From: Caldisericia bacterium
Lineage (GTDB): Bacteria > Caldisericota > Caldisericia > JAAYUI01
DNA length: 64,000 bases
Assembly (NCBI GenBank): GCA_017999835.1
Contig: JAGNLA010000006.1
Span: 1-64,000 of the forward strand
Reading direction: 5' to 3'
The notes under the pieces were generated by a model. The model was given only the letters and a program-made list of their open reading frames with translations, made no database searches and was not told the origin of the DNA. Made by a program: the position numbers and the translations under genes. The first letter of the stretch is position 1. The number at the start of each line of letters is the position of its first letter. Below are positions 24,008 to 27,748 of this stretch, in pieces.

Positions 24008-24440
24008 TTTTTTTAGAATCACTCACTAAAACATATTAGCAGTCACTAATACATTCAATTAGTTGAACATTTTGTAAGTTTTTCAAAAAATACTGAAATA
24101 TCCAGTCTTTTATCCTCGTCGAACTTTTTTTGCATCTTTATGTGGAGATAACATTCATAAAATCTATGTTTGTTGCCAATGTTAAAGACAAGGTGAAATC
24201 CTTGAACTTGGGTTTTCGACCCCAAAAACACCCCTTGGTCGTTGGCGTTCATTTTACCAAAAAATAGTTTTTTTGGTAAAAGGTTTCGGTATTATCTATC
24301 GCGTTGGCAAAATTGACACCTTGAAAGTCGAAAGTTAAACATCTTGACCCCAAAGCGGTAAATCGCAAAAGGGTCACCTGTAATAAACCTTGCATTAATC
24401 ACAATCTCTCGAGTTCGTTGACAAGGTTTAAATCAGGGTG

Positions 24441-24468
24441 TTGACATTCGGTTTCATTTTGCTATCAT
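24441..24468 (+). promoter_or_regulatory. rRNA promoter P2 (TTGACA-16-TATCAT)
   Basis: Near-consensus -35 and -10 elements about 70 nt upstream of the 23S 5' processing stem. A weaker candidate P1 (TTGACA-17-TAAACA) lies at 24314-24342. Confidence 0.55.
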
Positions 24469-24534
24469 AGAACCTCGTCACGGTTCGGTACGAACCTGAG
24501 GACTGCAAGAAGCGGTACCTTGAAAACTATGTAG

Positions 24535-27478
24535 GTAAGAAAAAGCAAGTAGTGAAAGCGAACAAGAGCACACAGTGGATGCCTTGGCACACGACGACGA
24601 TGAAGGACGCAGCAAGCCAGCGAAAGTGATCGGTGAGGTGCAAACAACCGTTATACCCGATCGTCTCCGAATGAGGCAACTCAAAATATCCCTATTGGAA
24701 TAAATAAAAATAGGGAAGTTAACCAGGGGAACTGAAACATCTTAGTACCCTGAGGAAAAGAAAGTAAATAACGATTCCCCCAGTAGTGGCGAGCGAAAAG
24801 GGAACAGCCTAAACCGTTTGTACGCATAGCAGTGGGCGTTGTACATGCGGGGTAGTGAGACAGTTTAGGATTGTCCACAACAATCCAAGAAGTTACAATA
24901 GGTTTTTGGTAGTCGAATTGTATGGAAAAACAAGCCACAGCAGGTGACAGCCCTGTAGACGAAACCATAACCCTTCTTAACTGTTCTCGAGTACCACGGG
25001 ACACGTGAAACCCTGTGGGAATCCGGGAGGACCATCTCCTAAGGCTAAATACGTCGGTGACCGATAGCGAACAAAGTACCGCGAGGGAAAGGTGAAAAGA
25101 ACCCCGGGCAGGGGAGTGAAATAGAATCTGAAACTGTGTGTTTACAAGCAGTCGAAGCACAATGCAGCAATGCAAGTGCGACGGCGTGCCTATTGAAGAA
25201 TTAGCCAACGAGTTATATTTTCAGGCGAGGTTAAAGAAAGAACATTCTGGAGCCGCAGGGAAACCGAGTCTTAATAGGGCGATAGTCTGAAGGTATAGAC
25301 CCGAAGCCGTAGTGACCTACCCTTGGTCAGGTTGAAGTGGGGCTAACCCCCCATGGAGGACCGAACGGGTTGTGGGAAAAAACACATCCGATGAACTGTG
25401 GGTAGCGGAGAAATTCCAATCGAACTCGGCTATAGCTGGTTCTCCCCGAAATGCATTTAGGTGCAGCGTCGATCCATTATCAGGTGGAGGTAGAGCACTG
25501 GAAAAGCTAGGGTCCTTACCAGGATACCAAACTTTACCAAACTCCGAATGCCATCTGACGTACATCGGCAGTGAGTCTGCGAGAGATAACTTCCGTAGGC
25601 AAAAGGGAAACACCCCGGATCGTCAGCTAAGGTCCCTAATACAGGTTAAGTGATATGAAGGAAGTGAAATTGCTAAAACAGCTAGTATGTTGGCTTAGAA
25701 GCAGCCATCATTCAAAGAGTGCGTAACAGCTCACTAGTCTAGTGATTTTGCGCCGAAGATTAGCGGGTCTAAAACCTGTAACCGAAGCTACGGATCAATT
25801 TATTGGTGGTAGGGGAGCGTTCCTAGTGTGGTGAAGCCATACCGTAAGGAGTGGTGGAACGCTAGGAAGTGAGAATGTTGGCTTAAGTAGCGCAAAGACA
25901 GGCGAGAATCCTGTCCGCCGAAAATCTAAGGTTTCCTGGGGAAGGCTTGTCCTCCCAGGGTTAGTCGGACCTAAGGCGAGGCCGAGAGGCGTAGTCGAAG
26001 GATAAGCAGGTTAATATTCCTGTACCGTAGGCAAGGCGATGGAAGAGAGAAGAAAGGTAAGTAGAGCAGGGTCTTGGTTATCCCTGCAGAAACCAGTAGG
26101 AGTACCGGGTTGTTAAACGCACCGGGCAATCTGAAGGCTAAACGAAAGTCTATGAACTAAGCTTCCGAGAAAAACTTCCTAAGATCAAATGCCGGACCGT
26201 ACCGCAAACCAACACAGGTAGGTAGGGAGAAATCTCCTAAGGCGTACGAAAGAACCATGATCAAGGAACTAGGCAAAATAACCCCGTAACTTCGGAAAAA
26301 GGGGTGCCACAGTAAAATGTGGTTGCAATAAATTGAGTCAGGCGACTGTTTAACAAAAACACAGGTCTGTGCAAAGCTGCAAAGCGCAGTATACAGGCTG
26401 ACGCCTGCCCAGTGCTGGAAGGTTAAGAGGAGGAGTTAGCGCAAGCGAAGCTTTGAATCGAAGCCCCAGTGAACGGCGGCCGTAACTCTAACGGTCCTAA
26501 GGTAGCGAAATACCTCGTCGGGTAAGTTCCGACGCGCATGAATGGCGTAACGATCTGACTGCTGTCTCGATCGTGGATTCGGTGAAATAGCAGTGCCCGT
26601 GAAGATGCGGGCTACTTGCGGCAGGACGGGAAGACCCCGTAGAGCTTTACTGTACCCTGGCATTGGAACTTGATTTGTTTTGTGCAGGATAGGTGGGAGG
26701 CTTTGAAGCGAGAGCGCTAGCTTTCGTGGAGCCATCGTTGAGATACCACTCTTTTCAAATTAGGTTTCTAACGCTTAGCCACAAACCAATCTGGCAAGCG
26801 GACAATGTCAGGCGGGCAGTTTGACTGGGGCGGTCGCCTCCAAAAATGTAACGGAGGCGTTCAAAGGTCTACTCAGCGTGTTTGGAAATCACGCAAAGAG
26901 TGCAATGGCATAAGTAGGCTTGACTGCTTAGATTGACGGATCAAGCAGATGAGAAATCAGGACATAGTGACCCGACGGTGGCGCATGGAAGCGCCGGAGC
27001 TCAACGGATAAAAGTTACCTCGGGGATAACAGGCTTATTGCTCCCAAGCGTCCATAGCGACGGGGCAGTTTGGCACCTCGATGTCGGCTCGTCTCATCCT
27101 GGGGCTGTAGTCGGTCCCAAGGGTTGGGCTGTTCTCCCATTAAAGAGGCACGCGAGCTGGGTTCAGAACGTCGTGAGACAGTTCGGTCCTTATCCGCCGC
27201 AAGCGTTGGAAATTTGAGGGAAACCCCCTTTAGTACGAGAGGACCAAGGGGGAGGAACCGCTGATGTACCTGTTGTCACACCAGTGGCACGCGCAGGGTA
27301 GTTATGTTCCGTTTGATAAGTACTGAAGGCATCTAAGTACGAAGCAATACCCAAGATGAGATTTCCGAGACGTTTAACGTAATAAGGCCTCCGGAAGATT
27401 ACCGGGTATATAGGCGCAAGGTGTAAGTGCAGCAATGTATTGAGCTGATGCGTCCTAATAGGCCGAAAGCTTCCTTGC
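24535..27478 (+). rRNA. rrl: 23S ribosomal RNA
   Basis: Conserved 5' GGATGCCTTGGC, internal universal 23S blocks (GGGAAACCGAGTC, GACGGAAAGACCCCGTGAACCTTTACTGTA-like, sarcin-ricin loop AGTACGAGAGGACC) and a 3' ...TGAGCTGATGCGTCCTAATAGGCCGA. The leader (24513-24536) base-pairs with the trailer (27491-27514) to form a processing stem. Confidence 0.92.
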
Positions 27479-27553
27479 TTTATATAAAACCTACATAGTT
27501 TTCAGAGCACCGCTTCGTGTAAAATTGAAAAGGCGAAAGCTTTTATTCAAAAA

Positions 27554-27674
27554 GGCTTTGGTGGCAATGTCGCAGGGGAAATACCCGTTCCCATTCCGAA
27601 CACGGAAGTTAAGCCCTGCAGAGCCGATGGTACTAATCGGGAAGCTGATTGGGAGAGTAGGACGCCGCCCAGGC
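27554..27674 (+). rRNA. rrf: 5S ribosomal RNA
   Basis: CCGTTCCCATTCCGAACACGGAAGTTAAG and ...GGGAGAGTAGGACGCCGCCCAGGCC; about 121 nt; 78 nt downstream of the 23S gene. Confidence 0.9.
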
Positions 27675-27748
27675 CTTTTTGCATTTCTGCCAATTACTAT
27701 AGTTGATTTTTATTTGTAATAAAATAATATCTTATAAGGTGCTAGAGA

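Follow-up and report, generated by a model that had tools for sequence, protein, structure and literature searches.

Results

A 23S–5S gene pair without a linked 16S gene

A 23S–5S pair preceded directly by a protein-coding gene raises the question of how it is transcribed and processed in the absence of a linked 16S gene, and how such a locus arose. We called rRNA genes with Rfam/Infernal at the gathering score and tRNA genes with ARAGORN, in both cases across the full window, by which we mean the whole 64-kb stretch of DNA analysed. The genes of the locus are as follows:

23528-24007, + strand: phosphatase gene of the dual-specificity/PTP type (Pfam DSPc / Tc-R-P / PTP-SAK), the upstream neighbour
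24552-27478, + strand: 23S rRNA gene (rrl), full length and without insertion (RF02541, LSU_rRNA_bacteria; 2609 bits, model 1-2925 of 2925)
27557-27673, + strand: 5S rRNA gene (rrf; RF00001, 5S_rRNA; 92 bits, model 1-120 of 120)

Because only the 23S and 5S genes reached the gathering score in 64 kb, we conclude that the window holds no SSU rRNA gene, either in the 24.5 kb upstream or in the 36 kb downstream of the 23S gene. ARAGORN detected no tRNA gene in the 64-kb window. A 16S remnant upstream of the 23S gene was considered and rejected, as 23950-24600 shows no similarity to SSU at E ≤ 1. In the relatives L006 and L007, ~10 kb of upstream sequence holds no 16S gene. Brewer et al. (bioRxiv 10.1101/705046) count genes as unlinked when the nearest 16S gene is over 1,500 bp away from the 23S gene; here no 16S gene lies within 24.5 kb upstream. 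The locus is a real rrl-rrf transcription unit without linked rrs or spacer tRNA. The original prediction had described a 23S–5S operon lacking a linked 16S gene and a tRNA spacer, and the Rfam/Infernal and ARAGORN searches over 64 kb bore this out; it was equally right about the phosphatase gene before the 23S gene (the DSPc/PTP-type ORF) and about same-strand protein-coding genes directly upstream, with no 16S gene there over 24.5 kb.

The same-strand block of ETF-beta, ETF-alpha, a 590-aa protein and, last, the phosphatase precedes the 23S gene in all relatives, and this synteny is present in L001, L006-L010, L254 and L255. A GTDB scan with the 590-aa protein yielded no relative, and the homologues of this protein are all metagenomic.

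The same layout in independently assembled relatives

We compared the locus with relatives' assemblies from three sources (Logan, ENA and JGI), reading ~20 kb of each. Relatives with 97-98% identical 23S genes showed an equal layout at the same locus (phosphatase, 544-551 nt, 23S, 5S). rRNA operons are common break or mis-join points in metagenome assemblies, and several short contigs here stop at the conserved leader or within the 23S gene, so that the 16S gene might have been collapsed out, or a chimeric join made at conserved rRNA. However, since the relatives share this arrangement in the same position, we regard an assembly artefact as extremely improbable. Independent assemblies of at least 9 samples from the three sources recovered the junction of phosphatase, spacer and 23S gene, with its diverged, lineage-specific spacer of 544-551 nt; the long contigs ERZ21878447 ctg45212l (265 kb) and 3300040744 Ga0439198_0000630 (103 kb) span the 23S–5S pair into flanking genes; and a conserved promoter sits in the spacer exactly where the transcript must begin.

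The genome might also be mixed, with a normal linked 16S–23S–5S operon elsewhere and this locus as an additional copy lacking the 16S gene. Our view covers 64 kb of this genome and ~20 kb per relative, and mixed genomes do exist, accounting for 0.62% of complete genomes (10.1101/705046). In the same survey, however, exclusively unlinked genomes (3.65%) outnumber them about sixfold, and the 23S–5S locus is fixed in place and strongly constrained in all seven lineages, as would be expected of a working copy. Short-read assemblies from several samples moreover resolve the junction of phosphatase, spacer and 23S start. We therefore consider a mixed genome quite unlikely. In a metagenome scan with the boxA motif and the 16S start, no 16S gene attributable to the clade appeared among the matches listed, which came from unrelated gut Firmicutes and high-GC soil lineages.

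The nearest named lineage

A neighbour-joining tree of 61 23S sequences, drawn from a biased sample of genomes sharing one 31-mer, placed the window as sister to two Caldisericota genomes, Caldisericum sp. AR60 (L046; NZ_JBLOBF010000001.1) and a Caldisericota MAG (L056; JAUSAI010000174.1). The 23S identity was 75.6-75.8% to L046 and L056, which are 80.6% identical to each other, and at most 72.4% to the others. The best named matches of PurD were Caldisericia/Caldisericales MAGs (55-59%), and the best named match of a second marker, an 801-aa PEP-utilising enzyme, was a Caldisericia MAG (54%), above a flat plateau of 50-53% from many phyla. These similarities point to Caldisericota as the nearest named lineage and to the organism as a deep, uncultured relative, which may represent a separate class or phylum.

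The absence of a linked 16S gene had been proposed as a taxonomic clue, restricted to certain lineages such as Deinococcus-Thermus, Planctomycetes, some spirochetes and various candidate phyla. The clue turned out to be weak, since a survey reports such genes from 37 of 71 phyla (10.1101/705046) and the organism belongs to none of the groups named. The same survey lists unlinked rrs and rrl-rrf in Thermus/Deinococcus, Dehalococcoidaceae, Planctomycetes, Borrelia, Rickettsiales and many uncultured groups. The arrangement is thus ordinary and of an already known kind, with unlinked genes in about half of the sampled phyla.

One conserved promoter directly upstream of the 23S gene

We examined two promoter sites upstream of the 23S gene:

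24441-24468, + strand: P2, the operon promoter, with TTGACA at 24441-24446, a 16-nt spacer, TATCAT at 24463-24468 and TG at 24460-24461 (TGcTATCAT)
24313-24341, + strand: P1 candidate from the original prediction, with TTGACA at 24313-24318, a 17-nt spacer and TAAACA at 24336-24341; not called by the scanner

The promoter scan ranked P2 as the best site in the region, with an 11/12 match and the TG extension. Counting both strands, only 4 sites in the whole window reach 11/12, and P2 alone among them carries TG; block shuffles yielded 0.11 ± 0.34 such extended sites against the one observed. Across the 7 lineages, GTTGACA and TTTGnTAnnAT are invariant and about half of the spacer positions vary. 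These boxes are fixed although the flanking 590-aa protein is just 52-65% identical in those lineages, and the P2 homologue is the sole + strand promoter match common to L006, L007 and L009. Transcription is predicted to start at ~24474-24477, and P2 lies about 80 nt ahead of the mature 23S. P2 had thus been predicted at its exact position, it is unique in the window, and its boxes passed the proposed check for conservation in relatives.

The TTGACA of P1 is also real, starting one base before the predicted 24314. A pair of promoters both driving the operon, like rrn P1/P2 of E. coli, would find some encouragement here: this TTGACA is a perfect -35 element common to the window, L008 and L254, the window's closest subclade, and the block just 3′ of it (ACCTTG...AAAGTTAA) is invariant, implying that something functional lies there. 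In addition, L056 carries a pair of good promoters ahead of the 16S gene in its linked operon, which shows that rRNA promoters in tandem do occur in the wider group. However, the -10 element TAAACA agrees with TATAAT at only 3/6 positions and does not end in T, the scanner made no call at P1, and no P1 homologue was called in L006, L007 or L009. The -35 element is kept in 3/7 lineages, with ACGGCA, AAGGCA, CGAGAA or ATGA-A in the other 4/7, and the conserved bases sit in the P1 spacer rather than in its hexamers. Given the poor -10 element, the missing scanner call and a -35 element in 3/7 lineages, P1 matches no better than chance and is probably no general promoter. Tandem promoters were accordingly not borne out, with P1 unconserved and P2 called in all relatives examined, and we judge their joint action to be unlikely. 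A minus-strand promoter (TTKACn-17/18-TGGTAAAAT) was also considered and dropped, as the last base of its -10 element is T in just 2/5 lineages.

Leader, boxA-type motif and processing stem

Between P2 and the 23S gene, and again behind the latter, the following elements were identified:

24475-24502, + strand: leader hairpin at a boxB-like position between P2 and boxA (cofold structure)
24504-24549, + strand: 5′ (leader) strand of the processing stem, pairing with 27474-27521
24517-24528, + strand: boxA-type motif ACCTTGAAAACT, a putative NusB/NusE antitermination site inside the 5′ strand of the processing stem
27474-27521, + strand: 3′ (trailer) strand of the processing stem, unchanged in L006 and L007

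A hairpin occupies the equivalent place in the ITS of L046 and L056 and in metagenomic 16S leaders. The linked operon of L056 contains two exact copies of the 12-mer ACCTTGAAAACT, one in the 16S leader (5379-5390) and one in the ITS, immediately ahead of the 23S gene (3592-3603), and L056 has 3 matches at no more than 2 mismatches against 0.49 expected. The motif is also present in the ITS of L046 and, among the matches listed, 125-155 nt upstream of the 16S gene in more than 120 metagenome contigs. Its recurrence at these places suggests that ACCTTGAAAACT is a boxA-type element and a putative site of Nus binding. The boxA of E. coli is of the GCTCTTTAACAA type; the window carries the ACCTTGAAAACT variant as its putative Nus site.

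The stem pairs 24504-24536 with 27489-27521 (~30 bp) and 24542-24549 with 27474-27481 (8 bp). Its cofold energy was -71.1 kcal/mol, compared with -41.0 ± 3.6 kcal/mol for shuffled trailers (z = -8.4). A stem enclosing only the 23S gene had been foreseen and is real, but the extent given for it, 24513-24536 with 27491-27514, was too short. Because leader and trailer are invariant among close relatives, covariation support for the stem comes from the distant Caldisericum L046, a single comparison in which a stem of the same design keeps its pairing although the distal bases of both strands differ.

The 23S–5S spacer and the 3′ tail

The 23S and 5S genes are separated by 78 nt. Two further elements lie in this spacer and behind the 5S gene:

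27529-27544, + strand: small spacer hairpin (AAAGGC-GAAA-GCTTT), read from the sequence
27674-27700, + strand: conserved 3′ tail CCTTTTTGCATTTCTGCCAATTA, at the end of which conservation among relatives ceases

L006 keeps the spacer hairpin with different bases (AAAAGA...TCTTTT). In the tail, CCTTTTTG (27674-27681) is fully complementary to CAAAAAGG (27548-27555), located just before the 5S gene, and gives an 8-bp extension of 5S helix I. As the tail both extends this helix and provides a U-run, it is likely a processing or termination signal. A similar T-run lies 3′ of the 5S gene in Caldisericum L046.

A self-contained operon and its possible origin

The reading that we favour, with a probability of about 85%, is a self-contained rrl-rrf operon that is driven by P2, has a boxA leader and a 23S stem, and derives from a linked operon split in the ITS. 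In the course of events that we infer, transcription would start at one strong sigma-70-type extended -10 promoter, P2, and the leader would present its hairpin and then ACCTTGAAAACT, which would recruit the Nus antitermination complex. The leader would pair with the trailer, and an RNase III or mini-III-type enzyme would cut the stem and free the pre-23S RNA. The 5S RNA would follow after 78 nt, flanked by the 8-bp extension of helix I, with termination after it at the conserved U-run. As to origin, an ancestral 16S–ITS–23S–5S operon would have been broken inside the ITS, its 23S–5S half retaining the 3′ part of the ITS as a leader and gaining a promoter directly upstream. A break inside the ITS is most likely because the Caldisericota ITS ends in the same module of hairpin, boxA and stem. 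The inferred direction, from linked to unlinked, depends on a distant outgroup (23S ~76% identical) from a biased sample.

L046 and L056 have linked 16S–ITS–23S–5S operons whose ITS, of 141 and 108 nt respectively, lacks a tRNA gene. The window has in common with them the boxA 12-mer, the preceding hairpin, the stem between ITS end and trailer, a 23S gene with no tRNA gene ahead of it and the T-run after the 5S gene. It differs in that their 23S gene follows a 16S gene at a distance of 108-141 nt, with promoters upstream of the 16S gene, whereas the window has no 16S gene and a promoter 84 nt from a 23S gene that is ~76% identical to theirs.

The order and spacing of promoter, boxB-like hairpin, boxA and RNase III stalk match canonical rrn operons such as those of E. 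coli (PMC10250234, PMC4807359), as do the boxA-type motif within the 5′ strand of the 23S stalk and the leader-trailer helix around the 23S gene. Unlike in those operons, the usual 16S–23S spacer module here forms the primary leader, right behind the promoter. Compared with other unlinked systems, the locus is alike in its intact 23S–5S pair, in the protein genes upstream and in a trait common to all seven related lineages. It differs in its host, nearest to Caldisericota, a phylum that the survey's main text does not name (10.1101/705046) and whose two members sampled here are linked, and in that the comparison points to both the probable break, inside the ITS, and the replacement promoter.

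On this reading the locus would offer a clean comparative example of a bacterial rRNA operon coming apart, with an ITS break, the module kept and a consensus promoter gained, and an uncultured deep clade related to Caldisericota would join the lineages with unlinked rRNA genes. Long-amplicon surveys of 16S–ITS–23S would miss this clade, and the unlinked state also bears on how 16S and 23S sequences are matched within genome bins; what is understood of rRNA operon biology stays the same.

A conserved intergenic region upstream of P2

We aligned the region between the phosphatase gene and P2 across the seven lineages:

24008-24440, no strand assigned: upstream intergenic region, non-coding, with several invariant blocks

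Eight or nine invariant blocks occur in these ~430 nt, for example TTTtACCaAA (24252-24261), ACCTTG (24318-24323), AAAGTTAA (24331-24338) and GTTTAA (24426-24431). The length of the region is nearly fixed, with 5 gap columns in ~420 across 7 lineages, and its variable positions are almost saturated. The spacer has no conserved ORF in any frame, Rfam gave no match to it at E ≤ 1, and RNA folding reached no consensus (RNAalifold -2.6 and -10 kcal/mol, with little covariation). The region may be regulatory for P2. More specifically, the ~430 nt could be a lineage-specific control region, with regulator or nucleoid-protein sites at fixed spacing that couple the 23S–5S pair to the unlinked 16S gene, or an undescribed non-coding RNA, a proposal that we hold as doubtful.

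The window, L006 and L007 all lack a canonical intrinsic terminator in the interval from the phosphatase gene to P2, and an AT-rich hairpin after the phosphatase stop codon folds no better than shuffled sequences. Because the window has no canonical terminator in this interval, some read-through from the same-strand upstream genes into the operon may occur. A terminator-like hairpin is present in the interval only in L009.

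Linkage of the rRNA genes

Infernal searches against Rfam at the gathering score returned a complete bacterial 23S rRNA gene and a complete 5S rRNA gene as the sole matches in the 64-kb window, with no 16S gene, and ARAGORN found no tRNA gene there. The genes of the locus are as follows:

19943-20716, + strand, ETF-beta, upstream neighbour
20713-21678, + strand, ETF-alpha, upstream neighbour
21732-23504, + strand, 590-aa protein without a Pfam domain, upstream neighbour
23528-24007, + strand, DSP/PTP-type phosphatase, last gene before the 23S
24552-27478, + strand, 23S rRNA
27557-27673, + strand, 5S rRNA

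The sequence searched extends 24.5 kb upstream and 36 kb downstream of the 23S, and neither side contains a 16S gene. The 23S is therefore unlinked by the usual criterion, a 16S-23S distance above 1,500 bp (bioRxiv 10.1101/705046). These results confirmed the original prediction of a 23S-5S operon lacking a 16S gene and a spacer tRNA, preceded on the same strand by the phosphatase gene; the non-coding spacer between phosphatase and 23S is 544 nt long. A 16S gene just upstream, which would have contradicted it, was absent from those 24.5 kb.

The 590-aa protein had only 14 homologues among 5.8 billion proteins, all metagenomic, and contigs encoding it were taken from at least nine samples. In every contig long enough to show it, the 590-aa gene was followed by the phosphatase, a gap of about 545 nt and the 23S. 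Two long contigs, of 265 kb (ENA) and 103 kb (JGI), carried complete 23S and 5S genes; neither had a 16S or tRNA gene in the roughly 10 kb before the 23S or the roughly 6 kb past the 5S. Their 23S genes were 97.4-98.2% identical to that of the window, and identity of the relatives to the window was 52-65% for the 590-aa protein and 74-78% for PurD. Since such diverged relatives share one layout in contigs from at least nine samples, an assembly artefact was ruled out as the cause of the missing 16S. We consider a second, linked rRNA operon elsewhere in the genome improbable. A metagenome scan yielded no 16S attributable to this clade among the matches listed.

Promoter and upstream spacer

The divergence of the relatives gave a set of seven aligned lineages suited to footprinting. 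The original prediction placed tandem promoters, P1 and P2, before the 23S; their boxes as located in the window are:

24313-24318 and 24336-24341, + strand, P1 candidate, TTGACA and TAAACA, read from the sequence
24441-24446 and 24463-24468, + strand, P2 from the promoter scan, TTGACA and TATCAT, 16-nt spacing, TG before the -10

P2 was recovered exactly as predicted. Four sites in the whole window (both strands) matched at 11 of 12 positions, and P2 was the sole one with a TG extension (0.11 ± 0.34 expected), although promoter-like matches as a class were not enriched around the operon (16 vs 12.7 ± 3.8 expected). GTTGACA and TTTGnTAnnAT were invariant in all seven lineages and the spacing was 16 nt in each, whereas roughly half the positions in the spacer varied. 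The scanner called the homologous P2 in three relatives' loci (L006, L007 and L009) as their only common + strand promoter. The P1 sequence was present one base from its predicted position. Its -10 lacked the final T and agreed with the consensus at 3 of 6 positions, the scanner made no call, and its -35 read ACGGCA, AAGGCA, CGAGAA or ATGA-A in four of the seven lineages; the invariant bases nearby (ACCTTG and AAAGTTAA) sit in the P1 spacer, outside its hexamers. Because P1 fails the conservation test that P2 passes, we accept one predicted promoter, P2, and not a tandem pair. No canonical terminator was found in the window between the phosphatase gene and P2, so some read-through into the operon is possible.

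The roughly 430 nt upstream of P2 (24008-24440) contained several invariant blocks and 5 gap columns across the seven lineages, with no ORF, consensus RNA fold or Rfam match:

near 24180, near-invariant GTTAAAGAC
24252-24261, invariant TTTtACCaAA
near 24290, near-invariant TATTATCT
24318-24323, invariant ACCTTG
24331-24338, invariant AAAGTTAA
24426-24431, invariant GTTTAA

Leader, predicted processing stem and proposed origin

From the P2 -10 through the leader into the 23S, the sequence was essentially invariant in the seven lineages. The elements around the 23S are:

24475-24502, + strand, hairpin preceding the stem
24504-24536 with 27489-27521, and 24542-24549 with 27474-27481, stem pairing by cofold
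24517-24528, + strand, ACCTTGAAAACT, within the 5' strand of the stem

Cofolding of leader and trailer gave -71.1 kcal/mol (z = -8.4 relative to shuffled trailers, at -41.0 ± 3.6), which bears out the predicted stem enclosing the 23S and extends it. The 78-nt 23S-5S spacer holds a small hairpin, retained in L006 with different bases, and the 5S lies between two exactly complementary sequences, CAAAAAGG (27548-27555) and CCTTTTTG (27674-27681).

Unlike the window, two Caldisericota loci, L046 (Caldisericum sp. AR60) and L056 (a MAG), carry ordinary 16S-ITS-23S-5S operons, with a tRNA-free ITS of 141 or 108 nt. At its 23S end, the ITS of both has a hairpin and then ACCTTGAAAACT, as does the window's leader; in L046 this stretch pairs with the 23S trailer, with distal bases differing from the window's stem. 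L056 has a further exact copy of the 12-mer ACCTTGAAAACT some 150 nt before its 16S, downstream of two good promoters. Presence in both leader and spacer is what classically marks a boxA, and ACCTTGAAAACT is thus a putative boxA. More than 120 metagenome contigs had the motif 125-155 nt ahead of a 16S, many of them in the order promoter, hairpin, motif. Because the linked relatives' ITS ends with hairpin, motif and stem before the 23S, the window's leader would derive from the 3' portion of an ancestral ITS and now stand right behind a promoter; breakage of a linked ancestral operon inside the ITS would be the simplest history. Eight high-GC metagenome contigs (L225, L183, L153, L136, L216, L147, L214 and L226) had a 16S with this promoter-hairpin-ACCTTGAAAACT leader, and the 1.8-7.9 kb of sequence from the 16S start onward contained no 23S; they are examples of unlinked 16S in other lineages.

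Lineage of the organism

PurD matches comprised a metagenome-only tier at 74-97%, a 54-59% tier including NCBI MAGs labelled Caldisericia or Caldisericales, and others at 50% or below. For an 801-aa PEP-utilising protein, the best named match came from a Caldisericia MAG; its 54% identity was only slightly higher than the level 50-53% shared by matches from many phyla. A GTDB scan with a 23S 31-mer carrying a rare base found at least 120 loci from many phyla, including L046 and L056. In a neighbour-joining tree of 61 full-length 23S genes, a biased sample drawn from genomes sharing that 31-mer, the window, L006 and L007 were sister to L046 and L056. Within this set, 23S identity of the window clade to L046/L056 was 75.6-75.8%, that between L046 and L056 80.6%, and that to others at most 72.4%. 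Given the biased sample and large distance, we assign the organism cautiously to an uncultured clade, which may be a class or phylum of its own and for which Caldisericota appear to be the nearest named relatives.

Of 71 phyla, 37 have documented cases of unlinked rRNA genes, and the trait has strong phylogenetic signal (bioRxiv 10.1101/705046), so the locus is a well-supported example of a known arrangement and not a surprise. The core of the original prediction stood, but neither its second promoter nor its reading of the unlinked state as a taxonomic clue was upheld.

Neighbouring genes

About 25 nt beyond the 5S, the window, L006 and L007 cease to be homologous, and the slot that follows is a variable defence-gene site (window 27749-29656; L006 16036-17912; L007 13800-14681). 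It holds a type II restriction-modification pair in the window (GC 27-32%; C5 cytosine methylase and NgoBV-type endonuclease), a HEC-01A/AriA/OLD-like ATPase with a small partner in L006, and a TIR effector-like protein in L007. The window's methylase gene has a +1 frameshift in a seven-T run (28040-28060) and reads ...RGNLFLI followed by two stops; a run of six T's would give RGNLFDIIRILKDKSPRGFLLENV, and the neighbouring endonuclease ORF is intact. A sequencing error in the homopolymer, phase variation or inactivation of the system could each explain the frameshift.

In a 276-aa ORF at 38450-39280, sigma-70 region 4 (PF04545) is unusually paired with the C-terminal domain of RNA polymerase alpha (PF03118). 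Several very large predicted surface proteins (4422-8495, 30911-34253 and 44108-52716) combine the copper-amine-oxidase N-terminal-like domain PF07833 with beta-helix, NHL or Ig-like repeats, and PF07833 is also encoded beside the rRNA genes of the loci L006, L007 and L012.
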